Assembly: GCA_965227835.1 (NCBI GenBank)
Contig: OZ245768.1
Location: 660,001 to 692,000 of the forward strand
DNA: 32,000 nucleotides
Reading direction: 5' to 3'
Origin: Candidatus Saccharimonadota bacterium
GTDB taxonomy: Bacteria > Patescibacteriota > Gracilibacteria > BD1-5 > UBA6164
The notes under the pieces are model-generated. The model was not told the DNA's origin. It searched no databases and saw nothing but the letters and a program-made list of their open reading frames with translations. Shown piece after piece: positions 399 to 29,439 of this stretch. The position numbers were made by a program, and so were the translations under genes. The number at the start of each line of letters is the position of its first letter. Position 1 is the first letter of the stretch.

Positions 399-1118
399 AT
401 GCAGAGTTTTTCCACTAAATATCATGATAAATTTATAAATTTTTTTAAGATTAAAAAAAATCCTTGAAAAATAGAGTTATGACTTCTAAAAAAAACTGAA
501 ATATATTTGAAATTTTTAAGATTTCTTCCATGACTTAAAATGATTTGAGTATGAAATAGTGTTTCTATGAATTGTGCTAAAGAAGAAAGTGATATAGATT
601 TATTTATTGTTACTACAAAAAACTCTATGTGGTTTAATAGAGTTTTTATAACTTTATTTTTTGAAATTCTTTGATTAAGAAAAACAAAAAAAACTCACAT
701 ATGAAAATTTTGCTTGAGTTTTTTTTCTACACTTGATTGACTTGACTTTAGCTCTTGGAAAATAAAAGATGATATATATCTTTATTTTTGGATACTTTAT
801 TTCAAACCTATACTTGATTATTGAGATACTTATAAAGTTTTTTTAGAAAAAAATTCTTCTTGGGCTGATTTTTCATCTTATAATAATTTAATAGATAGAA
901 ATAAAAAATATATTAAATATAAAAAAGAATATTTAGCTTCAAAGTCAGAGTGATTTTTTGTAAAATTTCTTGATTATTTATTAAAAAAAGTATTTTTTTC
1001 TAAAACTTTAAAATCATACGAAATATTATCTAAACCTTATTGAGTAATAATAAATGATGATTTATTGAAATTTCATGATGAAGATATAAGAAAAACTTTG
1101 AGAGATAAATTAGTTTAG
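399..1118 (+). CDS. nucleotidyltransferase-fold (Pol-beta-like) domain protein, 239 aa
   Basis: ATG 399 lies 6 nt after the rsmI stop; TAG at 1116-1118. Motif GVGNSVSMNCAKEESDIDLFIVT (G-S ... DxD). All 11 Gly are TGA by my count. Confidence 0.6.
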
Positions 1119-1271
1119 TTTAAAGTAAAGGATTCAGCCTTATGTTTACGAAAAATCAAATGTTAATTTTTTAGGTTTTCTTAAATAAGATTAGAATTTT
1201 TCTCACAATATTAAGCTAGTTTTTAAGTTATTTTACTATAAAACTTTTAAATTAAATACTTTTATCAATAT

Positions 1272-2711
1272 TTATTTCCTCACAAATCCACCATGAAATC
1301 CTGCTGTTATTCTAACTGGAAAATATGCTGAAAATTCTTCTTTAAAATTTTTAGCATTAAGCCCAAGTAAAAAGTTTTTCTCTTTTTTTTCATCAAACCC
1401 ATAACACAATAAAATTCCATCATCTTCACTTTTAGAATTTTTATTTTCTACAAAAACTGGTTCTCCAAAATAACAATGTTTTTTTGTAAAAATTAATGAT
1501 TTTTTATGTTCTATTACATCAAGTTTTACTATGTTTTTAAAAATATCATTTCCTTTTATATTTCTTTTCAAGTTCCCAATTCCATACACAAATCTATGTT
1601 TTTTATTTACATATTTCTCATTTATTCTTTGAAGCTCACAAGTATAATCTGATATTTTTTCTTCTTTAACTAATCCACTTTTTAAGTTCATAAAATATCT
1701 CATGTATTTTGGTGGATAAATTGAAACTCCTCCTTTTTTTAAATTTTCTATCATAAAATCTTTTAAAATTTGTGCATTTTCAAAAACTGGAAGTTCAAGT
1801 GTAATTGTATCATTTTCTTCATAGGCATTTGTTGTGTGAAAAAAGAAAAAAGGATTTACTTTAAATGATTTAACTTTTTCACCATTTGATTTTTTAATAA
1901 TATGAATTTTTGTTTTCATAAAATTTCCAAACCATTTTATATTTTGAAAAAATGAGAAAGGCAAAAAAACAACTGCTGCTGGAAATAATAATTTATAGGG
2001 TTGTTCAATTACAACTACATAGTTTTTTGTTTGAGAGAGTGAGTGAAAATAACTGGGACATAATCTAAAAAACCTTTTTATAACTTCTCTTTTTTCAGTT
2101 TTAATATTTTGTTTAATAACTTTATGCTGAGAAATTAAGTTCATTGAGGCAATTATGTTATACATATTTTTCCCATCAATTTGTGGATGAGCAGTTGTTA
2201 TTTGTCCAAAAATTCTGTTAAACTTATAATTCCCTAGTGTGTTTAAACATTTATCAAATTCAACATACTGAGTAGTTTCAGTGAGCGCGAGAAAGTTTTT
2301 ATTTTTATTTTGAATAATATTCACATTACAATTATCCATATCTTTTTGAGAACTTTGAGGAATTTGTGGAAGTACACTTCTTAAAATTCTAAATAACCAA
2401 AATTTAGAAAACCCACTTGGTTTTGTAGCAAACATAAATCCTTTATTTTTATTTTCTTCAATTGATTTTTTATAAGAGTGAGATCTTAAAAATTTATTTT
2501 TAAAATAGATATTATTGTTGACAAACTTTATTGAAAACAAATGTGAAAAACCATCAAACCAATGATTTAAATTATCTTCTCCAACATTAAATTTTCCAGG
2601 TCCAATTCTAAGTAATTGTCCTTTAATATCTTTTGGAATTTTTCAAAGAATTTTTAGTTTAGTCCAATCAGTTTCATTTGATACTTCATCAAAAAAGTTT
2701 TTGAAAACCAT
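1272..2711 (-). CDS. carotenoid cleavage oxygenase family protein (RPE65/CCD/lignostilbene dioxygenase-like), 479 aa
   Basis: The track ORF 1272..2540 extends upstream through one TGA (2643-2645) to ATG 2711. N-terminus: MVFKNFFDEV..LGKIPKDIKGQLLRIGPGKFNVGEDNLNHWFDGFSHLFSIKF. Internal FFFHTTNAYEE and C-terminal TAGFHGGFV are typical His-containing family motifs. Confidence 0.85.
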
Positions 2712-2721
2712 TATAAGAAAA

Positions 2722-3162
2722 TTAAAAAATAATTTTGGATTCCTTTTTTTGTAATTCTTCTTCTAATATTAAAAGCTGTTCAAAAAAGCTTTTTTTTTGT
2801 TTTTTTGAAAATTCACTGAATAATTCTTTACTTGTTTCAAGATATTTTTCTTCTACTTTTTTTATAGTTTTGGTTCATTTTTGGGTTATATAAAAATACC
2901 ATCTTCTTTTATCTTTTTTATTAATATTTCTCACTATAAATCAAGAATCTTCTAGTTTTTTTATTTTTTGTGTGAGACTTGATTTTGTCTCATCTGATAT
3001 TTTTTGTATTTCATGTATTTCAGATAGTCATTTATCTATTACTTTTAACAATCTATAAAGACTTACAGTAAGACTAAATTCTTTAAAAATCATTTTGTTT
3101 CATGTTTTTTCTAGGAGTGTTTTTACTATGAATAGTTTGTTTATAATTTTTATTTCTATCAT
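2722..3162 (-). CDS. MarR-family winged-helix transcriptional regulator, 146 aa
   Basis: ATG 3162, TAA 2722-2724, 10 nt upstream of the oxygenase start. Sequence LTVSLYRLLKVIDKGLSEIHEIQKISDETKSSLTQKIKKLEDSGFIVRNINKKDKRRWYFYITQKGTK (wHTH plus wing). 4/4 Gly are TGA. Confidence 0.75.
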
Positions 3163-3170
3163 TTCTTATT

Positions 3171-3189
3171 TAGTTAAGTAACTTAATTA
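3171..3189. promoter_or_regulatory. palindrome (core TTAAGT-A-ACTTAA, 3174-3186) 9 nt upstream of the marR start; candidate MarR operator
   Basis: Perfect 6-1-6 inverted repeat read directly. It extends to 9-1-9 with one mismatch. A second palindrome, AAAATTG-TT-CAATTTT, lies at 3222-3237. Confidence 0.3.
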
Positions 3190-3253
3190 TATATTTGGTT
3201 AATAAAAATCAAGCAAAAATTAAAATTGTTCAATTTTTAATCATAATTTTTTA

Positions 3254-3281
3254 TTGACATTATTATTATGATAATTATAAT
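3254..3281 (+). promoter_or_regulatory. sigma70-type promoter TTGACA-16 nt-TATAAT
   Basis: TTGACA 3254-3259 and TATAAT 3276-3281, followed by AAAGGAG about 8 nt before ATG 3341. Confidence 0.6.
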
Positions 3282-3340
3282 ACTAGGTGGATTTCAAATT
3301 TATTTGAAGTTTAAATATTTTTTAAAAAGGAGTAGTTATT

Positions 3341-3595
3341 ATGTTTAGTATATTTTACTTTTTTGGTATAATTCCTGAACTTTTCCCTAAGTTTTGCCGT
3401 GACTTTTTTAATGCTTATAACATTTTTTCTTCACTGTTATCGATTACAATATTCATAGTCATTTGTAGTAATCATCCTGATTTAAGTATATGGGGTAAGT
3501 TAATTTTGGGATTTTTTATCCTAATAGCAACGACTTTTATATTAGGACCAAATACACTAAAAGTAGAACTTAACAACTTAAAAAAGACCGTTTGA
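3341..3595 (+). CDS. small hydrophobic (about 2 TM) protein; 84 aa if TGA 3593-3595 stops, 108 aa (to TAG 3665-3667) if TGA=Gly as elsewhere
   Basis: Consensus promoter, Shine-Dalgarno-like AAAGGAG and a hydrophobic sequence. All 4 Gly are GGN and there is no internal TGA. The first TGA sits in the loop of the terminator hairpin. Confidence 0.45.
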   Translation: MFSIFYFFGIIPELFPKFCRDFFNAYNIFSSLLSITIFIVICSNHPDLSIWGKLILGFFILIATTFILGPNTLKVELNNLKKTV

Positions 3596-3610
3596 AAAAC
3601 GGTCTTTTTT
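3581..3610. terminator. bidirectional intrinsic terminator
   Basis: A5-GACCGTT-TGAAA-AACGGTC-T6. It lies 13 nt downstream of the pheA stop on the minus strand and at the end of ORF 3341 on the plus strand. Confidence 0.75.
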
Positions 3611-3622
3611 AAAATTTCCTCT

Positions 3623-4435
3623 CTAATACTCTCACAAAACCTTAACAAATTTTGTAAAAAACTTTAGTTCTAGCAAAGCCTTTTTTACATTTTTATCTTC
3701 AGTTTTTCATTCAAACTCAAGCCAAAAATAATAAGAAAACTTTCCTTTATAACTAGGCAAACTTTCTATTTTACTTAGATTTATGTTATTTGTAGCAAAA
3801 GCTCAAAGACATTTATACAAACTTGAAGGTATATTTTTAGCTTCAAAAATTATACTCACTTTGTTACTTAAATCCCTATATTTTAAACAAGAATTCTTTT
3901 TTACTATTATGGCAAATCTAGTTGTATTTTCTTTGTTATCATTTATATCTTCATCCAGTATATTTAGTTTGTATAAACTAGCTGCTTTCTTAGAGCATAT
4001 CGCTGCCACTCATTCTTCCTTATTTTCTCATACATATTTTGCAGCAAGAGAAGTATCTGAAAAATCTATGGGAACTATTCATTTTTCTTTTAAATATTTA
4101 TGGCATTGTTCAAGAGCTGGTGTTTGAGAATAAGCTTTTTTTACATTTTTTATTTCTTTTTCTTTTGAAGCTAAACAATGACTAATTTTTAGATAATATT
4201 CTCATATTATTTTAAAATCATATTTCAAAAAACCATATAGATTTGGGTGTATACTTCACATATAAGAATTTTCTATAGCCAAAACTCATATAGAATCATT
4301 TCAAATATTTTCCCAAACATTACTAAATTCTGGCATTCATATTATATCTTCTATTTTTGTGTTTAGTTTAGTTGATACTTTTTGAGAAGCTATATCCATA
4401 TAACTTCAAGTATTTCATTGGTAATATATTTTCAT
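3623..4435 (-). CDS. pheA: prephenate dehydratase (PDT plus ACT domains), 270 aa
   Basis: MKIYYQGNTGSY..GVLAIENSYMGSIHPNLY..TRFAIIVKK..IIFEAKNIPSSLYKCLGAFATNNINLSKIESLPS.. (TRF and ESxP motifs). ATG 4435, TAG 3623-3625. Confidence 0.85.
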
Positions 4436-4440
4436 ATTTT

Positions 4441-5259
4441 TTAGTTTTTCTTTAACAATTCCAAAATAAAAATAAAAGTTGCCCTATAAATTCTTTTTAT
4501 TCTTTTCAGTTTATTTCTTCATACAATAAGTCTATAAAACCATTCAAAACCTATATCACTCCAAAATTTTGGGGCTTTTTTTTGAAAACCTATGAAATAG
4601 TCAAAGCTACTTCACACTCAAAGACCGATTTTTATATTTTTGCATTCTTCCATAATCTCTACAATAGATTCTTCTTGTTTTTTCATTCATAGTGTTGAAA
4701 AAACTATTTTGGAGTCTGATTTTTTAATTTCTTCTATTACTTCTTCTTTTTTATCATATACAAAATAATCAAAACTAAGTGAGGGGAATTTTTTCAATAA
4801 ATTCTTTCTAAAATTTTTTTGAGACTCTATTTTAATTTCATCATTTGGAGAATGTAAATCTATTATTGAAATTTTTATATTTTTTTCTTCACAATGTAGC
4901 AATAAGTCTTTTGTCAAAAGACTTCATTGTATTCTTTCTCCATACTTTTTATACAAATATTTTTTTCTAAAAACTACATTAAAAATATAAAAGAGAAGTG
5001 ATAAGGTTTCTATAAAGTGGTTTTTTTTATTTTCAAGAATACTATATCATATGTATAATCAAATTCAGTCTGGGATTGAATATGTAGCTTTGTTTAAAAT
5101 ATCTAAAAATCCTTTATCTTCTTTTGCTTTCAAAACTATTTCAGGATTTGGTGTAAAAACTATATTTTGTTTTGTGCTTTTTTCTTCCAACTGCTTTTTT
5201 AAATCATCCAAAAGAGTTTTGTATTTTAGTTTATGTATCTTCACTCAAAAAATTTCCAT
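4441..5259 (-). CDS. WecG/TagA/CpsF-family glycosyltransferase, 272 aa
   Basis: MEIFGVKIHKL..NIVFTPNPEIV..IPDGIGL..ERIQGS..GLGVGSSFDYFIGFQKKAPKFWSDIGFEWFYRLI. Joins track ORF 4687..4917 to flanking pieces through TGA codons. Confidence 0.8.
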
Positions 5260-5262
5260 AGT

Positions 5263-6633
5263 TTATTTTTTAAAATTCTTTTTTAAAATAAAGGTCCTTT
5301 CCATTCTGCCTTCTTCATCATAACAATTATATCTAGAATAATATTTCATTTCAAAGCTTAAAAGTTCTTTTGAATTATCATATTTCAAACTTAGATCTTT
5401 TATAGGTACTTTTAAAATGTAATCATATTTTTTATCATAATCAAGATTTGAAGTTGGATCAAATTGTTCAAAATCAGAATTAGAAGTTCAATTTATCTTA
5501 GTAGGGTATTTCAATCAATTATTATGAATTTCTAATTTATTATCGTCTAGTGTTAATATATCATCATCTGACTGACTAAAAAATGGATATATTTTATCTT
5601 GTAGTTTAGCATAGTATGTTCAAGTTCAAGAAAAACCACTAAGGTTATCTATTTTTATTTCTTCATCATTAAATGATATGATTGTTCATCAGGAAAAACT
5701 ATAAATTAATTTGTTATTGCTTGTAGATAAACTATCTCAACCTTGTCTTGTATAATTATCAAAAGTAAAATCACTAGTATTTAAATTATTATCTATATTT
5801 TTCTCTCAATTTTGATCAAAAAATTCTATTTCAAATTTATCTTTACCTGAAAAACTTACTCAAGTTAGTGTAAGAATTGGAGCCTGTATTTTTTCAGAAT
5901 AAAATTTTAATATTTCTCATTTTGCTGAATTTGAGATATATAGAGCATTTTCTGAATCACTGTAATACAATCAAGTTGGTTCTAGTAATCAATCTTCTCA
6001 ATCTAATAGTTTGTAAATTTTTGAGCCTGATTCATAAAGTACTCTGTTATTTCATGTGTCTGAAATAAATTTTATAATTCAGTTGCTTCATGTTCAAGTT
6101 GGATTATTTAAATATACTTCATCTTTATTTAATCATTCATTTTCTATTTCATTATATCAAAAAAATCATCTTCATATACCATTTATTTCGTGAGATTTTT
6201 GTGTATCTAAATCAAAATCTGGAATAAAGCTTTTTATAAAAATATGATTTGTTGTCACATCTTCACTTCAGCTTAAACAATATATACCGTTTCAAGAATT
6301 ATCTTTAATAGATCAAGTGCTTCATATATAGACAAAACCTATTTCATCATAATTAGAGTCTATTTTTAAATATACACCAGTGTTTGTTCAATCTCAAACA
6401 ATTACAGGTTTGAAATTTTTGTTCACTCTAAAAAATATATCTGTTATTTTTTTTTGAAAAGATGAAAAATCTTTGTTGTTTTTTATATCTTTTTCTTGTT
6501 TTGTGAGATTTCATATTCCACCGGAAACCAAAACTCAAATAGACACCATAAGAAGTATTGAGATACTTATTCAAACTATTGTTTCCACTAGAGTAAAAGC
6601 ATTTATCCTGTTTTTTACTTTTTTATTTTCCAT
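5263..6633 (-). CDS. large type IV pilin-like / pseudopilin protein with a prepilin-type N-terminal motif, 456 aa
   Basis: N-terminus MENKKVKNRINA|FTLVETIVGISISILLMVSIGVLV (FTLVE plus hydrophobic helix). The ATG (6633-6631) overlaps the holB stop by 11 nt; TAA at 5263-5265. About 45 in-frame TGA and no TAA/TAG. Confidence 0.6.
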
Positions 6634-7330
6634 AATTTATTATTTTTACTATCCATTTATCAGCTATATTTCTAGCTAAAACATTATTTTTTTCTATGAG
6701 CTTTTTATCTTCAAATATATCCTGTATATTTTCAATAAAAATAAACTCTTTTTTTATAAAAAGTATCAAGTTTTCCAAAAAATCTATATATTCTTCTTTT
6801 TCAAGTTTGTTTTTAAAAAAATATGAAACTAGATTTCTACTATTTTTGTCTTTTAATGATTCCTGTATTAAATTATAAAAAAAATCATTTTTTATTTCTT
6901 GTCTTTGGGATGATATATTTACCACTTGGCTTCTTGATAAAATCGTATCGGCTATACCTGATTCACCTTTATTTGTGAAGAAAAATATATTGTATATTCA
7001 AGGTTCTTCAAATATTTTCAGGCAAGAATTTAAAGCTCCTATAGTTGCTCTAGAGAAATTTTCTATCAAAAATATTTGGATTTTATATCATGGTTTGGTA
7101 TTTGCTCTACTTAAAAATTCTTTTATTCCTGCTAATTTTATATTTTTTTTATCATCTTCTAGTTTAAATAAATAGCTTGGTGGAACACCAAGCTTTTTTA
7201 ATAGCTCCAAACAAATAGACTCTACTTTTTTGTTTACCAACTCTTCATTTTCTCAAACAAATAAAATTGGAGAATTTTCTACCTCCAATTTTATATTTTC
7301 TATTATTTTTTCTATTATTCTATCTCACAT
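6623..7330 (-). CDS. holB: DNA polymerase III delta'-like clamp-loader subunit, 235 aa
   Basis: ..KIQIFLIENFSRATIGALNSCLKIFEEPGIYNIFFFTNKGESGIADTILSRSQVV.. (sensor-1/SRC-like region). No Walker A motif seen. Extends track ORF 6623..6925 to ATG 7330. Confidence 0.6.
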
Positions 7331-7332
7331 TT

Positions 7333-7710
7333 TTACTCTATTTCTATATTCATTATTTCTTCTCATAAAATTTCTTCTATATTTATCTCATCATCAAAAT
7401 CTTTTGTAAGTTCTTCTATTGTTTTATCTTCGTTTTCATTACTACTTTGCTCATTTCAAGAATTATTTTCTTCACTATCTTTTACCATTTCTTTCAATAA
7501 TTCTTTTTCTTCACTTCACTGATTATCTCAATCTTCTTTCATCATTTCATCTCACTGCTGTGTATTATCATCAAGACCTACAGCTATTGTTTCTTCTAAA
7601 ACTTGCTCATTCTCTCACATCTCATTTTCAGGAGATTGTGTTTTGTTGCTATTAAAACAAGAACTCAAAAGAAAAACTGTCAAAATAGCTAAATATAATT
7701 TCATTTTCAT
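7333..7710 (-). CDS. acidic lipoprotein, 125 aa
   Basis: MKMKLYLAILTVFLLSSC (signal peptide plus lipobox L-S-S-C) followed by a Glu/Asp/Asn-rich sequence. TAA 7333-7335 lies 2 nt before the holB ATG. Confidence 0.55.
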
Positions 7711-8367: not shown

Positions 8368-9630
8368 ATGATTATAATAAATAACAAAGACCGAGCTTTA
8401 GATATACTAGAGAAAATCAATTATTTAGTATCAAAATATGAGAAAACTAAGTTTATTGATAAAAAAGAAAAAATAGAATTACTTATTAAAACCAGTAATA
8501 AGATTCTATTAAACTACTCAGAGTTAAAATTTTTAAGAGATAGTATAGGTGATTTAAATCTAGAAATAAGTTTATTATGAATAGTAGAGTGACCTGTAAT
8601 ACTTAAAAACCTAGATTTGTTATGAATCAAATATGGATTTTTAGAAGATAGGTATAAACTATTTAAATTTATGAAATCCATGTTTAGTTTTTTAAAAAAA
8701 GCTAGGAAATATATATTTATTGTAGCTAGTATAATGCTTTTATATTGCCTAGCTATGGTTTCTCTTTATTTTTATAAATCAGGTCAGGAGATATACTATA
8801 TAGAAAAAGATTTTATATTATCCTCAAGCTCTATAGAATGACCAAAACTCAATAAACTTTCTCTAGAAATAGATCATGAATTAGTTTTTCTACCCAACAA
8901 TATAGATTTTTCTTGAACAAGTAGATCTATATGAAGTGTTTCTTTTGAAAATAAATCTGGTAGAAGCATAAACCTAGTTGAAAAAACAAGACTTAAAAAT
9001 TCAAACTGATTAATATTTAGAATAATAGAAGACATAAACATTCCACCTTCTAGTATTAGTAACGGTGTTAAAACTCCTTGAATTATAAAAACAACCGTTA
9101 TAGCTGATATATTTGATCAATCTTGAAGTTTTATTTGACAAAGATGAAATATAGAAAAAAATACAAATTTAGAACTTGTAAGCAAAAACAATTTCAACCT
9201 CAATATAAAAGCTTTAGATGATTTCTATTGATGAAAAGGTAATTATGTATTTTATTTTAAAGAGAAAGATGAAGAAAATGTATTAAATATTTTTAGAGGT
9301 GATATAAAAAACAAAGCTATAGCTGAAGCATCAAAAAAACTAATGCTAGATTGAGCTAAAAAAAATAAAGAATTTTTACTCGTAAAAGATTCTAGAACAT
9401 ACAGTTTTCAAAACTACGAAGTAAATTTAGATAAAACACTTGAAAAACAGATAAAACTAAATTGAAAAATAAACCTAGATTCTTATTATATAGATATTAC
9501 AGAAGTAAAAAATTTGATGATTTGAGACACAAATTATAAAAAAGAAGAAATAAAGGTAAAAAATATAGAAATATTAAGTCAAAATCCCCTAAAAATAAGT
9601 TTGTCTTTAACAATTAAGGAAAGTCTTTAA
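8368..9630 (+). CDS. hypothetical membrane-anchored protein (420 aa; alternative in-frame start ATG 8671 gives a 319-aa signal-anchor protein)
   Basis: Continuous code-25 frame from ATG 8368 to TAA 9628-9630. The segment from 8671 reads MKSMFSFLKKARKYIFIVASIMLLYCLAMVSLYFY (a typical N-terminal anchor). Confidence 0.5.
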
Positions 9631-9705
9631 AAGCTATTTGTTTTGTCAAAATTAAAGAATTTTTCGGTTTTTCCTTAAAATATCAATAACCTCCACCAAA
9701 AAATT

Positions 9706-10527
9706 ATGAAAGTTTCTATAATACTTCCTACTAGAAACAGTCAAAGGACAATAAAAAAATGCCTAGAATGAATAAAAAAACAAAGCTATAAGAATATAGA
9801 AACTATATTTGTAGACAATTATTCTTGTGATTGAACCTTTGAAATATGAGAACAATTTAAAAAACAAATAGATATAAAATTATTTAGAAAAGGACCTGAA
9901 AGAAATAAACAAAGACCTTATTGAGTACAAAAAGCTAACTGAGGTATATATATTTTTTTGGATGATGATATGTATATTCCAAAAGATTTAGTAGAGGAAG
10001 TAGTAAATATTATGGAAAAAAATAAAAGTATAGGTTCTTTGATAATTCCAGAAGAAAATATTGCTTATGATTGATTTTGGTCAAAAGTAAGGGCATTTGA
10101 AAAGACTTTTTATGATTGAGATGATGGTATAGAATCTCCTAGAGTATTTAGAAAAGAGGTTTATAAAAAAGTATGATGATATAACAAAAAATTAATCTCT
10201 GGAGAAGATTGGGACTTATCAAATAGAGTCAGAGAAATGTCAAAAATATCAAGAACTAAAAAAAAATTGCTACATGACGAATGAGACATAAGACTAATAG
10301 AGTTGATGAAGAAAAAATTTTATTATTGAGAAGAGTTTGTAAATTATACAAAGTACAATTCTTTTAAAAATACACTAAATAAACCATTTTTTATGAGAAA
10401 ATGTTTTTATACTAAATACAAAATGTATTTTAAAAAACCAATTTTAACTTTTTGACTTTTTACAATGTTAAAACTTACACTATTATCTTTTTGAGCTTGA
10501 TACATAAAATGAAAATTGAGAAAATAA
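9706..10527 (+). CDS. family 2 glycosyltransferase, 273 aa
   Basis: MKVSIILPTRNSQRTIKKCLEGIKKQSYKNIETIFVDNYSCDGT..YGVQKANGGIYIFLDDDM..GGYNKKLISGEDWDL (GT-A fold, DDD and ED motifs). Confidence 0.85.
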
Positions 10528-13500
10528 AATCTATATTTAAAAGTAAAATAAAAACAAATATCTTAGCTTTTTTTATATTTGTTTCTTTTTTGTTTTTATT
10601 TTTCCCTCTATTTAGAAGTGAATGAGTAATAGTTTTTTGAGACATAGATATATGATTTTATACTGATAATTATATAAAAAGAATACTTCCTTTATGGAAT
10701 GAAATTTGGTCAACCAGTAATTTTTTTAATTCCACAAGAATATTTTATGTAAGTTTTGTTTCTGTAATATCATTTATCTTTTCTTTTGATTCCTCATCAT
10801 TTCAAAAATTAATGATATTCACATTTTTGTTTTTAAGTTTTTTTGGAATGTATCTTTTTGTAAAACAAATACTTACATTTGAAAAATTTAGAAAAAATTT
10901 GGTATTGCCTGCATATTTCATTTTTATCATATCAATAATATCAGCACTTTTTTATGCCTTTAATCCTTGGAGTATAATAAGAATTCAACATATATTTTTA
11001 TTAGCTTGATATGCTCTTCTGCCATTTATATTTTTAAGTATTATATTTATAACAAATTTTGAAAGATTATATAGATATAAAATACCTTTTTATTATATAG
11101 TTATGATAGCTGTATTGTATGTCATATCTATTTGATCAATACACTATCTGATTTTTATTTTTCTTTTCATTTTTTCACGGTACATATACAACTTTTTTAT
11201 ATTTTTGCTCAACAAAAAATATGATAAACTTCTAAGATTTAATTATTTTTTCATACTTTTGGGGATTATAATAGCCTGACTCATATCTTATTTTACTATA
11301 CCCTATATACTATCAAATACTATTTATGAAATAAGTCCTAAAAATCTAAATACCATAGAAACAATAAATCTATTTTCTAGGTTTTCAAGTATAGACAAGA
11401 TACTTTATCTAACAAGCTATTGGTGGACAATGATAGATTTTTCAAGCTTTTGATTGTGATACAAAATTGGATGATTTCTAATAATAACAACTGTATTTTT
11501 ACCAAATTTATTTAACCTAAAAAATAAATATGTAAGTTTCTTTTTAGTATGGAGTATAATACTTTTAATACTTTCAAGCTGAACATATTACTGACTAGCT
11601 CCTTTTTATAAATGGCTTATATTTGATGCCCCTATAATATCAAAAGTAGGTTTTATATTGAGAGATCCAAACAAATTTGTATGACTTTTGGCTTTTTGTT
11701 ATTCTGTGCTTTGGGGACTAGGGCTAGCTTATTTTTTATCATCACTTTTCAAAATAAGAAGAAAAATAGAAAGTGAAAAAAACTTGATAGATACAAGCAA
11801 AAACTTAAATCTATGAAAAGTTAAAAATAGGTATTTTTTATTATCAAAATCAGTATATATATTTGCTGTTTTTTTCATATTAATATCTATTATATCCTAT
11901 AGTTTTTATATAAAACCATTTAAGCTAGTTTTTATAGACAATTTTTATTCTCCAGTAAAAATTCCTGATAATTATATTGAACTCATTGAATACCAGAAAA
12001 AAGATGAAGGAAAATGAAAGTATATTTATATGCCTAGATATGAATCTAAAATGTCTCCCTGATATGACTTTTCTATTGCTAAATGGAATACCAAAAAATA
12101 TGAAAACTCTTCCCAAAAAGCTATGTGATCAATAGATATAAACTCTAGCATAAAACCTACTTATCATCCATTAGAAGGTTCTATAAATTACCTTTCAATG
12201 TTTTATAACTATATAGATAGCTATCTAACAATGTGAATATGAAAAAATCTACACAAATATTTATATTTACTAAATATAGATAAACTCGTTTATCATAATG
12301 ACATATTATTTTTAGAACAAGAGCAAAAAATACAATTAGAAAATATAAAAAAACAAGACAACATTAAACTAGATAAAAACTTTTGATTTATTGATGTGTT
12401 TGATGTAGAGCAAAAAAGTAATTATATAAATGTATATGGTAATAATTTATTTCATTTTTGATGATTTAACAACCTAGAAACTATATTTTCTTTACCGGGT
12501 TATAACTACAAAAAGTTTGCTAATATATTTGTGCAACAAGATACAAAAATTAATAATTGGTCTAAATATGAAAAGCAAAGTGATTTGATAAATGTAAAAA
12601 ATAAACAAGATTTATTTACAAGCTATTTAGAAGATGATGAAATACTAGCTCCTTTTGATTACAACAATTATTATTCTCCTTTTGATAGATGGAGTATAAT
12701 GAGAACAGATATGAAAGATTTTAGATGGCATTTAAAACATTTATGAATAAAAAACTGGGGATGGGATTTTGATTTAAATAAATGATTTATATTTACCTAC
12801 TCACCAACAAGTATAGACATAGAACCTTATGAAGATATTTATGATAAATGAAAAGATATAATAAATTTTTGAGAAATAAAAGATATAAGCCAACTTCTAA
12901 AACCAGATAGTAAACTTATAAATATTTCTATTGAAAAAACTAAAAAATATGATTCTCTACCTTCAATAAAATGAGAAATATGGAAATGAGACTCAAAAAC
13001 TTGGAGAGTATGAATTATGAAGAACATAGAAGTAAAAGAAGCAAATCCATATTTTTTTGAGCTTTTAGTTTCAGGTAAATGAGTAAACAATATACATGGT
13101 AAAATTCACTTTTTAGACGAAGAACTAAACGAAATATGAAACAGTTATGTAAGTGCTCCTAAAAATTCAGAAAATTTTAAAGCTATAAAATTTAGATGAA
13201 ACTTTATTACTCCTATAAATACTAGATATATATCCTTTAAAATACTATCGCTTGAAAATCCAAAACAAGATACATATTGGTGGATACATGACATAAAGCT
13301 AAATGACTTAGAAGAGTATAAAAAAGATAATATCCAAAAGCTAGAATATGATTTTAAAGCCCCTGGTATTTATAATATTTATGCTAGAGTTTTTAAAAAT
13401 ACAAAATGATGAGAAATAGAGATTGATATATCTTGAAAGAAATATAATATAAAAACAAAAACAAATTCACTAAACAAATTTTCTTGGCAATATTTATGAA

Positions 13501-16940: not shown

Positions 16941-19900
16941 ATGGTTGAAAAAAGAGAAATAGGTGGAGGTTCTATTGAGTCAAATTCAAGCAATAGAGTT
17001 GACACTTCAGTTAAAAGCCATGTAGAAGGTATTTTATGAAATAAAAACGAAATAAATACTTGTCTTACAAGTTATAGATTAAATCAAAATTTAAATAAAA
17101 AAAACTTTGATTTGATTTTTGATTCATTTTTAGAAAAAGCAAAAAGTGATGATAATTTTGCAGAAAATATAGTCCCAGCATTAATAAATACCTGAAATAT
17201 ATCAGAAGAAAAACTGAACTCTAGCTTTGATTTAATCTTAAGAGAATCAAAAAATAGAGATAGTTGGTCAAGATATATATTTCCAGTATTAATAAAAACC
17301 TGAAAGATATCAGAGGATAAATTAAACTCTAATTTTGAGTCAGTTCTACAAGAAGCAAAGCATAATACATATTTAGCAATATATGTAGTACCAGAATTAA
17401 TAAATACATGAAGAATATCGGAAGAAAAATTAAGATTTTTAGATAATTTTTTTGATTTTGCTTTAAAAGAAGCAAGAACTAATCAGGACTTTGCAATATA
17501 TATAATTCCAGCACTAATAAATACCTGAAAGATACCAGAAGAAAAGTTAAACTCTATTTTTGAATCATCTTTAGAAGAAGCAAAAGATAATGAAGACTGG
17601 GCAAAATATATAATTCCACTTTTAATAAATACCTGAAAAATATCAGAAGAGAAATTGAATTCTATTTTTGAATCATCTTTAGAAGAAGCAAAAACAGATT
17701 ATTACTGGACAATCTATATAGTTCCAGTATTAATAAATACATGAAAGATATCAGAAGATAAATTAAACTCTATTTTTGATACAGCTTTAGAAGAAACAAA
17801 AGTTAATGAAAATTGGTCAGAATATATAATTCCAGAACTATTAAATACCTGAAAAATATCGGAAGAAAAACTGAACTCTAGCTTTGATTTAATTTTTAGA
17901 GAATCAAAAAATAGAGGTAGTTGTTCAAAATATATATTTCCAGCACTGATAAAAACCTGAAAGATATCAGAAGATAAATTAAACTCTATTTTTGAATCAT
18001 CTTTAAAAGAAGCAAAAATTAATGAAAATTGGGCAGAATATATAATTCCAGAACTAATAAAAACATGAAAGATATCAGAAGATAAATTAAACTCTATTTT
18101 TGAGTCATCTTTAAAAGAAGCAAAAATTAATGAAAATTGGGCAGAATATATAATTCCAGAACTAATAAAAGCCTTAAAGATATCAGAAGAAAAATTAGAA
18201 CTTCTAGATGATTTTTTTGATTTTATTTTAGAAGAAGCAAAAAGTAACGACGTTTGTGCACGATATGTATTTCTACCACTATTAAATACCTGAAAGATTC
18301 CAGAAAAAAAATTAAAACTTATAGATGGTTTTTTTAGCTTAGCTTTAGAAAAAGCAAAAAATGATTACTTTCGGAGAGAATATATAATTCCACTTTTATT
18401 AAATACCTGAAAGATATCAGAAGAAAAACTGAATTCTATTTTTGAATCGTCTTTAGAAGAAGCAAAGGATAATGAAGATTGGACAGAACATATTGCTCTA
18501 GCATTAATAAATACTTGAAAGATATCAAAAGAGAAATTGAACTCTGTTTTTGAATTATCTTTAGAAGAAGCAAAAACAAATTATTTTTGGGCAGAATATA
18601 TAGTTCCAGCATTGATAAATACATGAAAAATATCAGAAGAAAAATTAAAACTTCTAGATGATTTTTTTGACTTTATTTTAGAAGAAGCAAAAGTTAATGG
18701 TGATTTAGCAGAATATGTAATTCCAGAATTAATAAATACTTGAAAAATATCAGAGGAAAAATTAAAACTTCTAGATGATTTTTTCTATTTAGTTCTAGAA
18801 AATACAGTAACATATGATGATTACCAATCAACACATGCAATATTAGCATTACTAAAAACCTGAAAAGTATTAAATTTTACAATACTAGAACACGATGAAG
18901 AATTTTTATTAAACTATAAAAGAAATAACGAACTATTTGACTCAATATTTAATAAATTAAATCAAAACTTCAAAATACTAACATTTCTAAACAAGAATTT
19001 TCTAAATTTAGAAATCCTTGAAAAAGTAAATAAATTCTTAGAAAAATATCAAGTTAATACAGATATATTTTGAGAAAACATAGAAAAAATTCTACAAAAC
19101 GAAAATGGAATGGAAATATGATATTTTTTAGAATGTATAAAAAAAGAAGAAAATCTTCCTGAAAACTATCCAATAAATACAACCAATTTCACAAACTACA
19201 TAAAAGAAGAAAATGAAGTAATATTTAGCTTTGAAAAAGATGAATGATTAACCTGAGAAACTAAACCCTGGACAAAGAAATGGTTTTTAGAAAATACAGA
19301 AAGAAAAAATTACTTAAAAAAAGAAAATTACAAAACCATAAAGAAATTTGGAACAATAATCTGAATATGGTTACTATGATGATGTAAAGATAAAAAAAGT
19401 CTAGAAAAATTCTATAAATACATATTCTCATCAATAAACATAAAAAAATCAAGAACAAGCCTACTACAGCTATGAGAAATATTTAATCTAATCCTAAGAA
19501 AAGAAGATTACAGTTTACTAGATGAACTAGTATGAAACAAAGTGGAAATATGAAAATGCTTTAAAAACTTTGTAGAGCAATACAAAATCTCAGATAAATG
19601 AAAAACCATACTAACACTATTAATAACAAGAGAAATAAGAGATAGTTACCAAATATTTAATAACAAAAACTGAGACCAACAAATAGACTACACAAGTATA
19701 GAACGTTTATTATTATCAGTCTATAAAAAGCTAGAAAAATATAAAAAAGTAATAGAAATATACAAAAACATACCAGTAAAAACATCTATATGAATAGAAA
19801 TAGAAGTAACACAAAGTATATCAGAAGCATACAAAGAATTAAATCAAAGTGACTATAAAAATGATATAGAAATAATATCAGACTATAGCTGAATATCATC

Positions 19901-21221
19901 ATGAAACGATGCAGTACATGAAATATGTACAAAACCAACAGATAACCCATATTTACTAATACTAGAAATACAACTACTCCAAGACCTAGACTTCCTAGAC
20001 CTAAACTTCAAAAAAGAGTGATATGACAAATGATCTAGATGATTACACATAACAATATGATGAGAAAAAGTAGAAATGGATGAAGAAAGTAATTTCATAC
20101 AAAACATACTATCATTATCAAATATATGAAGTGTAAACTCATGAGAAGAAATAAATAAAGTTAATTATTATTGGAGTATAAGATGAAAAGGAGGTTTAGA
20201 AGATATATATTGAAATATGAACTGAGTAGAATTTAGGAGTTTGAGTATAGATAAATTTGAACAATTTGAGAGGATGATAATATCTACATTTAATCTATTT
20301 ATGTTGAAACAGTTATCTAGTATTAAAGAGATAAATAAATGAAAAGAAAACTGAATATTATTAAAATTAAAAAGACTATTAAGTAAGCAAACAAAAATTA
20401 AAAATCTAAAAAAACTACAAACTCACTTTAAAGAATTAAAAACAAAAATAAAAAGAACTATAGAAAACCACAATAAATATTTTTTAAGGAATGAAAGCTT
20501 AAATGAATGATTAGATAAAAATATAGAAAACCTATTAAAATTATTTATAAGTACCTGACCTGTAATAGAACTAATAAACAAACTAAACTTAAGTATTTGA
20601 TATCTAAGAAGTATATGAGACACAGAAATAAAAACCCAAGAAGAATTTGAACAAAGATTAAATAAAGACTGAAAAGATATATATAGTTTATGAGAGAAAC
20701 AAAGAAAAATACTTTATATGAACTACAAAATAAGAATAAAACCAAACTTAGAAAAGATAAGGAAAAAAGATGAAGAACTATATAACAATATATGAAAATA
20801 TTTAAATTGAAATTTAGATGAGACACTAAGGAAACTAACAAATAGATCTAGATTTTTAGAAGTATGTTTATGAGATGAAAAGAAACTACTAGATTATATA
20901 GAAAGTATAAAAATAGAACCAGAATATATGTATGAGAAAATGGATGAAGATTTATCAAATAAATTTATTAGGATAAATAATCTTTTTATAAAGAAAGATT
21001 CAGTTAATGCTATATGAATGTTAACAACAACTAAAGAAGAGGATTGAGTACTTGTTGATTTATTACAAACAGAGCTTAGTATATATGACAAGCTAGATAG
21101 ATGAATTGAGCCTAGAAAATGATATAATGTTATCCAGTGAGCTAGTGAAGATATGCTTGTACATAGTGTTGCAAGAGAAATTCTTGAATGTAATAGATTG
21201 GTTTTAGAGTATTTGAATTAG
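16941..21221 (+). CDS. giant repeat protein, 1426 aa: 16 tandem 36/39-aa helical repeats, then a linker, an amidoligase-like (GS/GCS2-fold) region and a C-terminal helical region
   Basis: ATG 16941 to TAG 21219-21221, with no TAA/TAG in frame. Candidate ligase motifs at about 19780-20320: IGIEIEV, SGNDAVHEICTKP, SRGLHITIGG, GVEFRSLS. Confidence 0.7.
17094..18863 (+). repeat. in-frame tandem repeat array, 16 units of 108 nt (11 units), 117 nt (4 units) or 120 nt (last unit)
   Basis: Consensus KISEEKLNSIFESSLEEAKxNxxWAEYIIPxLINTG. The invariant Gly is TGA in 15 of 16 units (17193, 17301, 17409, 17526, 17634, 17742, 17850, 17958, 18066, [TTA 18174], 18291, 18408, 18516, 18624, 18741, 18861). 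Confidence 0.9.
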
Positions 21222-24702: not shown

Positions 24703-25686
24703 ATGTCCAATTTTGAAAATAATAATAACTATCAAGAAAATTATAATGTTAGAACTGAATCTTATAGAATTTTTCCAGATTCATATCCTTGAAAAAGTGA
24801 CTATGAAAGTAGTTTTAATGAAATAACCTGAAAATATAGAGTTATAAGTGAAACAAGATGAGAAATAGGGGATTTAAAAAGTGAGATAGGAGAAACCTTT
24901 GTAAGAAGTGAACCTGACAGAGGTTTTGATTTTCAAATCAGAACACCAAATGATAACATAACCCCTAGTCTAGATTGAAAAGATGATTGATACACCGCAT
25001 GAATTTGAACTGAGATAGAGTATTGAGGTTATTACTGATGAATTAATATGGATATTTATACTAGAAATCCTACATATACTGATAGAGATACTTGAGAATC
25101 TTTCAAATATGATTATGACGGAGAATCAAGTAGGGTGGATATTTTAAATTTTTATGCTTGAAGAGTTTTTAATCTATACGAAGATAGTAAAACACAGTTT
25201 GACTTAAAAATTTGATGATGAATTGAAGCTGAATGAAATTTCTGATGACAAGACAAAATACAAAATCCGTGGCATGAAATTTCTCAAACTTCTGACTTTG
25301 ATGTTACAGCTGATTATGATGAATGAAGAATTTGAGTATATAGTGAAACTAATTTACAAGCATTAATGTCTATTTCTGAAAATTTTTATGTATGAGCAGA
25401 TGCTTATGCCAAACTATGAACATTGTCTAGTTCGTTTGATGCAAAATCATTTTCATGAATAAGTTTTTGAGGTTTAAACATAGAAGCGGCAGTATGATAT
25501 AGTAATCTTGATACTGATTCTGACACTATAAATTATGGTGCTAACAAAGGATTATATAATGAGTTTGAGGTTTCTTATGAATTTGAAAATTGATTGAAAC
25601 CATATGTCTGATTTAAATGATATACTCAGGATCAAGATGCTCCAAATGATTGATATTGAACTGTTTGAGTTAGTTATAGCTTTTAA
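24703..25686 (+). CDS. Gly/aromatic-rich protein with beta-barrel-like sequence character and a C-terminal Phe, 327 aa
   Basis: ATG 24703 (in-frame TAA at 24682 upstream) to TAA 25684-25686, with about 30 in-frame TGA. The C-terminus reads ..LKPYVGFKGYTQDQDAPNDGYGTVGVSYSF. No N-terminal signal peptide (MSNFENNNNYQENYNV..). The standard-code track shows no ORF here. Confidence 0.55.
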
Positions 25687-28374: not shown

Positions 28375-29439
28375 TTATTTTTCCAATTTTCTCTTCATAT
28401 AAGATATGTATTCTGCCATTTCTCTTGTTTCTTCTATGGAACTACAGGGATCTGTAATAGATTTTCATTTTATTAAATTTTCTTTATCATAGTCTTGTCT
28501 TCATCTATACAAATAACTTTCTGTCATAAAACCTTTAAACATTGATAATATCCCCTTGTTTGATTTCTCTAAACTCTGTAAGTTTTTTATTGTTTCCATC
28601 ATTATATTTAGCTGTCTAGATGGATCTTTTCAAGAATTATCATGATTAGTATCAATTATAAATCAAGGATTTTTTATTTTCATTGATTTTATTTTTTCAA
28701 ATATTTTTTTTAATGATTTTTTATCATAGTTTATTTTTATATTTCATTCAAAATTACTACCTCTTAATATTCAATGAGAAAAATTATTCCCTCTACTAAA
28801 GTATATATCTTCTCATATGGTATAAAAACTTTCAGTTTGTCAGGATTTTATTGAATTTATCATGACTGATAAGTCTCAAGATGTCGGATTTTTAAAACCT
28901 ATGGGCATATCAAGACCAGAAGCTATTTCTCTATGAGATTGATTTTCACTACTCCTAGCTCATATTGCTATATATGAATATATATCATCAAATGATTTAA
29001 TAAGTTGTGGGTGTAACATTTCATCTGCAATAGGCATTCAGAAATTTTCTATTATTTTTACAGCCATTTTTCTAGATTCGATAAGACATTTTCATATATC
29101 AGGTTCCTCTCAAGGTTTTGAATTCTGAACTCATTTCCAACCTCAAACTGTTCTTGGTTTTCCAGTATAAAACCTCATTACTATTTCTATTTCATTTTTA
29201 TGTTTATCTCTTATTTTTGATAATTCTTCTCAATATTTTAATATTGATTCTTCAAAATCTACACTGCAAGGTCAAACTATCCATATTTTTCTATCAGATT
29301 TTCAGCTTATTATATCTTTTAAGTTTTCTATGGATTGAGCAACAACTAGTCTTCATTTTGAAGATAAGGGAGAGCTTTCTTTTATTTGTGTATGAGTTGG
29401 TTTTTTTCAAATATGTATACAATTAGATGAGTTTTCCAT
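28375..29439 (-). CDS. aroG: 3-deoxy-7-phosphoheptulonate (DAHP) synthase, class I (AroG/F/H type), 354 aa
   Basis: ..[116 protein letters not shown]. The isoenzyme type cannot be decided from sequence. Confidence 0.9.

Follow-up and report, generated by a model that had tools for sequence, protein, structure and literature searches.

In reduced Candidate Phyla Radiation (CPR) lineages that read UGA as Gly (genetic code 25), gene gain by horizontal gene transfer (HGT), including gain from archaea, has been reported, as in the 126 HGT genes of Vampirococcus lugosii (PMC8080830) and the archaeal-like ATP citrate lyase of a Gracilibacterium (PMC6851277). The recoding of UGA has also been discussed as a form of genetic isolation, a "genetic-code firewall" (Campbell et al. 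2013, as cited in PMC8080830). The locus described here likewise represents gene gain in such a lineage. It is a carotenoid oxygenase gene, located on the minus strand at positions 1272-2711 of a 32,000-nt stretch of a Gracilibacterium chromosome (contig OZ245768.1, positions 660,001 to 692,000; hereafter the window). The analysis indicated that this gene is very probably a xenologue, recently copied from a standard-code, Nanoarchaeota-like (DPANN) pool into the code-25 bacterium.

The assignment of TGA to Gly in the host was verified. The long open reading frames (ORFs) of the window emerged only when TGA was read through, and in the alignment of the HtpG encoded in the window with that of E. 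coli, 10 of the 18 alignable TGA positions faced Gly and none faced Trp. The nearest named homologues of the prephenate dehydratase (PDT, PheA) encoded in the window were those of Candidatus Gracilibacteria. Code 25 is also marked by a tRNA-Gly(UCA) and by the lack of release factor 2; the scan for tRNA-Gly(UCA) detected no tRNA gene in the 32-kb window or in the loci L001 and L003. The 22 other credible genes of the window were used as the native background for the 1.49-Mb genome. Pooled over these genes, TGA accounted for 359 of the 493 Gly codons (72.8%), along with 78 GGT and 37 GGA, and the lowest share in any single gene was 4 of 10. The oxygenase gene, which starts with ATG at 2711-2709 and ends with TAA at 1274-1272, contained 26 Gly codons in code 25, namely 16 GGA, 6 GGG, 3 GGT, no GGC and only one TGA. 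The difference from the native genes was highly significant (Fisher p = 6.8e-13; binomial probability of at most 1 in 26, 1.4e-13), and none of the 22 tabulated genes showed a comparably low use of TGA.

An earlier examination of the letters alone (the sequence-only reading) had drawn attention to this gene. Its number and position of the TGA codon (2643-2645) were exact, and its total of 21 Gly codons, 20 of them GGN, was a miscount of the actual 26 and 25. The 422-aa standard-code ORF that it described does exist (1272-2540, with a TTG start), and no other code-11 ORF in the window comes near it in length. The TGA counts that it gave for comparison were right on recount; the TGA/GGN numbers were 11/0 in the gene at 399-1118, 4/0 in marR (2722-3162), 20/8 in aroG (28375-29439; match to DAHP_synth_1, E=5e-42) and 31/8 in the gene at 24703-25686.

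The protein search returned one match at 92% identity and four at 49-52%, with the rest, including all JGI-derived homologues, at 36% or below. The 92% match was the representative of a 90%-identity cluster of 15 sequences. One member, P0128, was the window's own protein as deposited, on a contig of 1,489,121 bp. The genomic contexts were examined for eight further members (L003 to L008, L011 and L012), all of which except L004 came from a single ENA metagenome analysis, ERZ25074195. The window ORF aligned without gaps over 1440 nt to all eight copies. The nucleotide identity was 93.8% to L012, 93.4% to L005, 92.9% to L007, 92.6% to L011, 91.8% to L003 and 91.5% to L006, all of which are archaeal, and 88.5% to L008 and 86.1% to L004, which are code-25 copies. 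The six archaeal loci carried dense, long code-11 ORFs at a GC content of 23-28%; no in-frame TGA was present in any called gene, TGA was used as a stop codon, and GGA was the preferred Gly codon. The archaeal markers on these loci included TATA-binding protein (TBP; E=3.6e-60), L34e, aEF-1beta, archaeal LeuRS (leuS_arch), Elp3, type II MetAP, a FlaI-like ATPase, archaeal flagellin and aIF5A. L005 is a contig of 948,147 bp, read as circular from the "_c" at the end of its record name, and its TBP was 80-83% identical to proteins of Nanoarchaeia, Woesearchaeota and Nanoarchaeales. Judging from these markers, the donor pool would consist of Nanoarchaeota-like DPANN archaea with small genomes.

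The sequence-only reading had proposed that TGA is acquired slowly by conversion of GGA. Codon 23 agreed with this proposal: the six archaeal copies all have GGA, L004 and L008 have GGG, and the window alone has TGA. The other 25 Gly codons of the window gene showed the same spectrum as those of the archaeal alleles. GC content was uninformative on the origin of the gene, because donor and recipient genomes both lie at about 23-24% GC. The usage of codons other than those for Gly was distinctive: the log-likelihood ratio was -14.4 (archaeal-like) for the window gene, and it was positive in 19 of the 22 native genes, the lowest among them being -2.6. For example, ATT made up 67% of the Ile codons in the oxygenase gene, 25% in native genes and 55% in archaeal genes.

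In the neighbour-joining tree the window allele was nested among the archaeal alleles, and the sister group, at about 50% identity, consisted of standard-code bacteria with 49-60% GC. Among the 306 homologues, the identity fell from at least 88% to about 50% (the standard-code bacteria) and then to 36%, and no deep, vertically inherited Gracilibacteria clade was found. Carotenoid oxygenase homologues at about 35% identity occur in other CPR bacteria such as Paceibacterota, which qualifies the earlier statement that this function is unexpected in CPR. All six archaeal loci, representing five contexts, shared a conserved block upstream of the gene that contained TTATATAA at -30 to -23 relative to the ATG; the block was absent at the code-25 loci (window, L004 and L008). 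This is the position of the TATA box for leaderless archaeal mRNA.

The borders of the window copy were sharp. Nucleotide homology to L003 and L005 hardly exceeded the ORF (Table 1), that to L006 and L007 reached weakly as far as 1251 and 2730, and the flanks did not align with the archaeal flanks. The remaining upstream resemblance to the archaeal loci was only 10-19 nt next to the ATG, and a further 10-nt match to L012 lay within the last codons of marR. The corresponding site was empty in L010, a sister Gracilibacterium from another study (PheA 68% identical, 23% GC). Window positions 3636-5956 corresponded to L010 10800-8476 and positions 1-1095 to L010 11952-10831. The PDT gene of L010 lies immediately next to the orthologue (241 aa, 58.6% identical) of the gene at 399-1118, which the sequence-only reading had named an NTase and for which no Pfam match was obtained. 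The proposed recent import from a code-11 donor was thus strongly supported by archaeal alleles with 91-94% nucleotide identity, homology limited to the ORF, and the empty site.

The copies in L004 and L008 belong to another code-25 lineage. L004 is OZ245922.1, a 1.0-Mb chromosome of a "Patescibacteria group bacterium", and the GC content of the two contigs is 34-35%. When translated in code 11 they gave only three ORFs of at least 150 aa, and TGA faced Gly in the isopropylmalate synthase (IPMS) homologue of this lineage. The oxygenase copy contained no TGA among its 23 Gly codons, compared with 103 of 248 in the neighbouring genes (Fisher p=1.6e-5). The GC content of the gene was 29% in a genome of 35%, and a lower-GC source was therefore indicated for this copy. 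L004 and L008 shared the same gene context and were 96% identical over the oxygenase and both flanks. These features suggest that the same ORF also entered a second, unrelated code-25 lineage. L008 additionally harbored an insertion sequence (IS) of 2.17 kb (688-2861), located about 150-190 nt upstream of the oxygenase gene, with two transposase ORFs (DDE_Tnp_1 and Transposase_mut) that contain TGA codons. The element was missing from L004 (at about 9820), which was otherwise 96-99% identical, and is a later insertion relative to L004.

Recombination among the alleles was detected by the pairwise homoplasy index (PHI) test on seven nucleotide copies (p<=0.001). The alleles were mosaic: residues 105-112 and 120-124 form variant blocks, and each of their four possible combinations occurred. 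The gene was present in at least five archaeal (Nanoarchaeota-like) contexts and in two unrelated code-25 CPR lineages, and IS elements were located near it only in L006 and L008. We tentatively raise the possibility, in which our confidence is limited, that within one community a single ORF-sized oxygenase gene is undergoing active exchange and recombination between the two domains. If so, DNA traffic between DPANN and CPR episymbionts, via shared hosts or direct contact, would be routine, and the alleles would form a natural time series for the invasion of a foreign gene by a reassigned codon as well as a test of one-way flow.

Several further traces of rearrangement were observed at the related loci. 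The 1.09-Mb contig L006 carried an extra, truncated 5' copy at 7176-7435, comprising 219 nt of the ORF (7217-7435) and the upstream block. This copy was 94% identical to the full copy of the same contig and adjoined a gene for a 389-aa protein, and an IS5-family transposase gene (8905-9816) lay between it and the full-length oxygenase. In L007, an extra fragment of about 115 nt of the ORF end with its 3' flank (12784-12917) was found 1.3 kb downstream of the intact gene. This fragment follows a Lnt/CN-hydrolase-like gene of 430 aa, and its 3' flank matches L012, which suggests a cassette-like replacement via recombination at the 3' end of the gene. The gene for the 389-aa protein recurs with the oxygenase at L003 and L005 (7131-8300) and at L006 (7634-8803), three archaeal loci in which it lies on the minus strand, with 82.5% nucleotide identity between L006 and L005. 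Neither this protein nor a conserved 505-aa archaeal neighbour gave a Pfam or NCBIfam match; the former may act together with the oxygenase or belong to a larger mobile module. The oxygenase was split into 272 and 215 aa in P0127 and P0134, encoded on one 76,853-bp contig, and P0132 was truncated to 108 aa, so that the gene appears to be decaying in some hosts. Defence genes of restriction-modification (R-M) or helicase type were located within a few kb of the oxygenase or its relatives of about 50% identity in four unrelated genomes (Table 1), an arrangement that may point to a preference of the gene for variable "island" regions.

The direction of transfer was assigned from the archaea, or an archaea-like pool, to the bacteria on the grounds of codon usage, the promoter of archaeal type, and the displacement of the gene toward AT in L004 and L008. 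A gene exported from a code-25 genome would normally hold many TGA codons. The synonymous divergence (dS) of the window gene from its closest alleles, L012 and L005, was 0.18, and the pairwise ratio of nonsynonymous to synonymous divergence (dN/dS) was 0.12-0.24 against every allele. Twenty-three nucleotide states were private to the window, 12 of them synonymous and 11 nonsynonymous. Over about 275 synonymous and 1162 nonsynonymous sites, these changes correspond to an omega of about 0.22, and the gene was therefore considered to have been kept functional in the new host. The gain of TGA at one of 17 ancestral GGA codons (6%) was close to the private synonymous change (12/275, 4%), and fits a slow, neutral acquisition of the reassigned codon.

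We propose the following course of events. The oxygenase ORF would move and recombine among several archaeal genomes. As the donors read TGA as stop, the incoming ORF would have been free of in-frame TGA, with GGA favored for Gly. An intact ORF without a promoter would have arrived from very AT-rich archaea of the same community and landed 10 nt downstream of the native marR in the same orientation, with loss of the archaeal promoter, and read-through from marR would be the simplest route to its transcription. After arrival, a single GGA (codon 23) would have changed to TGA at the background synonymous rate, with the donor codon signature retained, and the catalytic apparatus would have been kept by purifying selection in the new host.

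Some observations weigh against a recent import from the archaeal pool. The closest allele differs by 6% (dS about 0.18), so that "recent" is to be read relative to lineage divergence. The actual donor genome is unsampled, and an unsampled third party could have seeded both archaea and bacteria. The native background comprised 22 genes of the 1.49-Mb genome. With respect to the empty site, marR is missing from L010 as well, and the PheA of L010 shares just 68% identity with that of the window. A contig of the same species as the window, L009, carries marR, as the window does, and ends inside it, 270 nt short of the oxygenase, so that in this species the junction is seen in one assembly only. 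No viral or phage carrier was found among 2.9 million IMG/VR viral contigs and the INPHARED phages. Mobility signatures were also not evident around the window copy: between positions 1000 and 3700 the repeat search gave only chance pairs of low-complexity, AT-rich sequence, with no direct or inverted repeat that was convincing and neither a target-site duplication nor terminal inverted repeats. In the sequence examined, of which the left limit was window position 1, the copy had no integrase or transposase gene near it. As there were no supporting repeats, we abandoned the idea that the window copy is an integron cassette or part of a composite transposon. As for L009 itself (ctg42947, 33.7 kb), it showed 97.3% nucleotide identity to the window over 11.4 kb and ended at window position 2994; the end may reflect strain variation, or a break in the assembly brought about by the large number of nearly identical oxygenase alleles in the sample.

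The immediate source might have been an unsampled standard-code vehicle or organism (for instance a plasmid, a virus or some other AT-rich microbe) from which the archaea and each of the two code-25 lineages received the gene independently. The restriction of homology to the ORF in the bacterial recipients, the five archaeal contexts with IS elements adjoining in L006 and L008 and R-M or other defence-type genes adjoining in L003 and L011, the mosaic alleles (PHI p<=0.001), and the bacterial affiliation of the next relatives at about 50% identity would all agree with such a source. We nevertheless consider it unlikely, as the non-Gly codon usage, the GC content of 13% at third codon positions (GC3) and the preference for GGA match the archaeal genomes' own genes, the archaeal-type TATA block is conserved in all archaeal copies, the window allele is nested in the archaeal diversity, and neither the viral contigs nor the phages searched contained a relative.

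It is less probable still that the locus is an assembly or binning artefact, in which reads of an abundant archaeal gene were mis-joined into the Gracilibacterium contig. At least 13 alleles at 86-96% identity occurred in the same sample, which would invite graph tangles, and L009 breaks just before the gene. The window allele was, however, not identical to any archaeal one, with its 23 private states including a TGA that is a stop codon in archaea, and the oxygenase is situated 10 nt from marR in continuous sequence. The same protein (P0128) appears in the public record of the 1.49-Mb contig, and the two independent contigs L004 and L008 of the other code-25 lineage showed the same context at 96% identity. 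Finally, a native, vertically inherited gene in which TGA is avoided by selection for accuracy, expression or regulation, or a transfer from Gracilibacteria to archaea, was judged extremely improbable. The TGA share of native genes does vary from 40% to 100%, and export of a TGA-free allele is possible in principle, but no native gene came near 4%. The empty site in L010, the archaeal-like non-Gly codon usage, the shift of the gene toward archaeal AT-rich composition in a code-25 lineage of 35% GC, the promoter block conserved across archaeal contexts, and the lack of a deep Gracilibacteria clade among the 306 homologues all contradict both forms of this explanation.

Returning to the imported gene itself, its product was a full-length match to PF03055, the carotenoid oxygenase (RPE65/CCD) family (E=3.8e-93; 313.6 bits with a cut-off of 27), covering protein residues 8-477 and positions 2-468 of the 469-position model. 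A seven-bladed beta-propeller fold and O2-dependent cleavage of alkenes characterise this family. The best match among solved structures was PDB 6vcf (E=7.9e-72, residues 4-476), NdCCD, the apocarotenoid-cleaving dioxygenase of the archaeon Candidatus Nitrosotalea devanaterra. The two proteins share the four His motifs TTAHP, xYxHS, FHxxNAxE and GFHG, so that all four iron-binding His residues (H175, H223, H292 and H473) are conserved in the window protein. The Glu motifs TET (E145), ELQRIN (E359) and GEPVF (E417) aligned with TET, ELPRIN and GEPVF of NdCCD; we take these residues to be the second-shell Glu that hydrogen-bond three of the His ligands. In NdCCD, His172 is an Fe ligand and the four-His cluster has been defined, and carotenoid cleavers, NdCCD among them, have Val at the occluding position, where the stilbenoid cleaver CAO1 has Thr (PMC12051055). 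Val130 of the window protein (DNCNVN) faced the occluding V126 of NdCCD (DNANVN), and (apo)carotenoid substrates are therefore favored over stilbenes. The enzyme looks intact, with hydrophobic (apo)carotenoids likelier as substrates than stilbenes, and its probable role is the O2/Fe(II)-dependent cleavage of (apo)carotenoids obtained from other cells by scavenging. It is a possibility that such an enzyme lets auxotrophic cells make retinal or apocarotenoids from host carotenoids. Retinal formation in particular is a bare possibility, and no rhodopsin domain was found among the called genes in any of the flanks retrieved.

Codon 23 of the window gene faced Gly in NdCCD ("vkGtIPkwl"). The deposited translation P0128 has Trp at this position, showing that code 4 rather than code 25 was used for the annotation. 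The public code-4 translation is thus wrong for a code-25 lineage, and TGA-encoded Gly was probably mistranslated as Trp throughout the record.

The sequence-only reading had placed the oxygenase under the control of the MarR-type regulator. The adjacency was confirmed: the two genes share a strand, and the stop codon of marR lies 10 nt upstream of the ATG of the oxygenase. An inherited operon was not, as a MarR gene neighbours the oxygenase in none of the 10 other loci carrying a relative of the gene. Since marR is native and unlinked to the oxygenase elsewhere, the arrangement reflects at most promoter capture after insertion. The link between the two genes would be opportunistic, and transcription of the oxygenase most likely occurs by read-through from marR. 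The regulator gene pairs with a small divergent ORF at 3341-3667.

Table 1. Coordinates of the oxygenase gene, its catalytic and border features, and neighbouring genes (window positions unless another locus is named).
Feature	Position	Strand	Description
Oxygenase gene	1272..2711	-	479 codons, GC 24.4%, GC3 13%, TGA at 1 of 26 Gly codons
Sole TGA (Gly) codon of the oxygenase gene	2643..2645	-	Codon 23, in the conserved N-terminal G-x-IP motif
His175 codon, iron ligand 1	2187..2189	-	Motif TTAHP, aligned to NdCCD TTAHP
His223 codon, iron ligand 2	2043..2045	-	Motif PSYFHS, aligned to NdCCD
His292 codon, iron ligand 3	1836..1838	-	Motif FFFHTTNAYE, aligned to NdCCD
His473 codon, iron ligand 4	1293..1295	-	Motif AGFHGGF, aligned to NdCCD
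Nucleotide homology to L003 and L005	1268..2722	-	blastn; ORF plus 11 nt upstream and 4 nt downstream
marR, MarR-family regulator, native	2722..3162	-	PF01047, 30.2 bits (cut-off 24.6); 4 of 4 Gly codons TGA
Convergent flanking gene, native (earlier "NTase")	399..1118	+	11 of 11 Gly codons TGA; orthologue in L010
Prephenate dehydratase (PDT/PheA), native	3623..4435	-	PF00800, E=3.7e-47; synteny anchor
Segment missing from the L010 site	1119..3622	.	Oxygenase, marR and small divergent ORF
Defence-type genes near the oxygenase or its relatives	L001 11608-19259; L002 11487-15610; L003 14204-18983; L011 1048-7451		

The small ORF divergent from marR (window 3254-3667, plus strand, the hydrophobic coding region starting at 3341) was preceded by an AAAGGAG ribosome-binding site and by a perfect sigma-70-like promoter, TTGACA-16-TATAAT (3254-3281). 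A perfect 16-bp bidirectional terminator hairpin (3578-3612) holds in its loop the one TGA of the ORF (3593-3595). Translation in code 11 stops at this TGA and gives 84 aa, and translation in code 25 continues to 3667, overlapping the end of the PDT gene. The protein was markedly different in L009, a 97%-identical strain. Elsewhere in the window (16941-21221, plus strand), a 1426-aa protein was encoded, of which the N-terminal half consisted of at least 12 tandem units of about 38-40 aa (…INTGKISEEKLNSIFESSLEEAK…); its Gly codons were 57 TGA and 11 GGN.

The import of the oxygenase gene is a clean natural example of one-way gene flow over a genetic-code boundary. It represents a very recent transfer, from archaea to CPR, of a lipid-cleaving enzyme that depends on O2, with ultra-small episymbionts on both sides, and bears on how reduced organisms gain metabolic functions. 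As alleles of the donor pool and of the recipients are available, at 86-94% nucleotide identity, the first GGA-to-TGA conversion can be observed, and the two independent code-25 recipients permit an estimate of its rate. To our knowledge, concrete and datable cases of the proposed one-way firewall are scarce in bacteria with UGA as Gly.

Within PF03055, NdCCD shares the four His motifs, the Glu motifs and the occluding Val with the window protein, and is a distant relative rather than an orthologue. The hosts also differ, NdCCD being encoded in an ammonia-oxidising thaumarchaeon and the present family in Nanoarchaeota-like archaea and Gracilibacteria. The apocarotenoid-15,15'-oxygenase (ACO) of Synechocystis (PDB 2biw) belongs to the same family with a similarity much lower than that of NdCCD (E=7e-25), and so do the metazoan BCO/RPE65 proteins, the beta-carotene 15,15'-monooxygenase entry 7wh0 matching at E=4.5e-41.

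The kind of event is already known, namely a xenologous CCD-family gene that follows the classic logic of amelioration, and no new mechanism is involved. According to the amelioration concept attributed to Lawrence and Ochman, a foreign gene reportedly keeps the codon usage of its donor and drifts slowly to that of the host. Under the firewall concept, recoding blocks the export of genes containing TGA and not the import of TGA-free ones, and the window case is alike in this respect. Unlike the usual cases of amelioration, GC content was silent here and the reassigned codon itself served as the marker. The earlier HGT reports in code-25 CPR relied on phylogeny or best matches at much greater divergence, whereas the donor-pool alleles found here were 91-94% identical at the nucleotide level; moreover, the insertion site was defined against a sister genome and the codon-reassignment signature was quantified (1/26), unlike in those reports. 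What is new in the present case is therefore the combination of donor-pool alleles above 90% nucleotide identity, a defined insertion site and two independent recoded recipients, with the reassigned codon as the only compositional marker.

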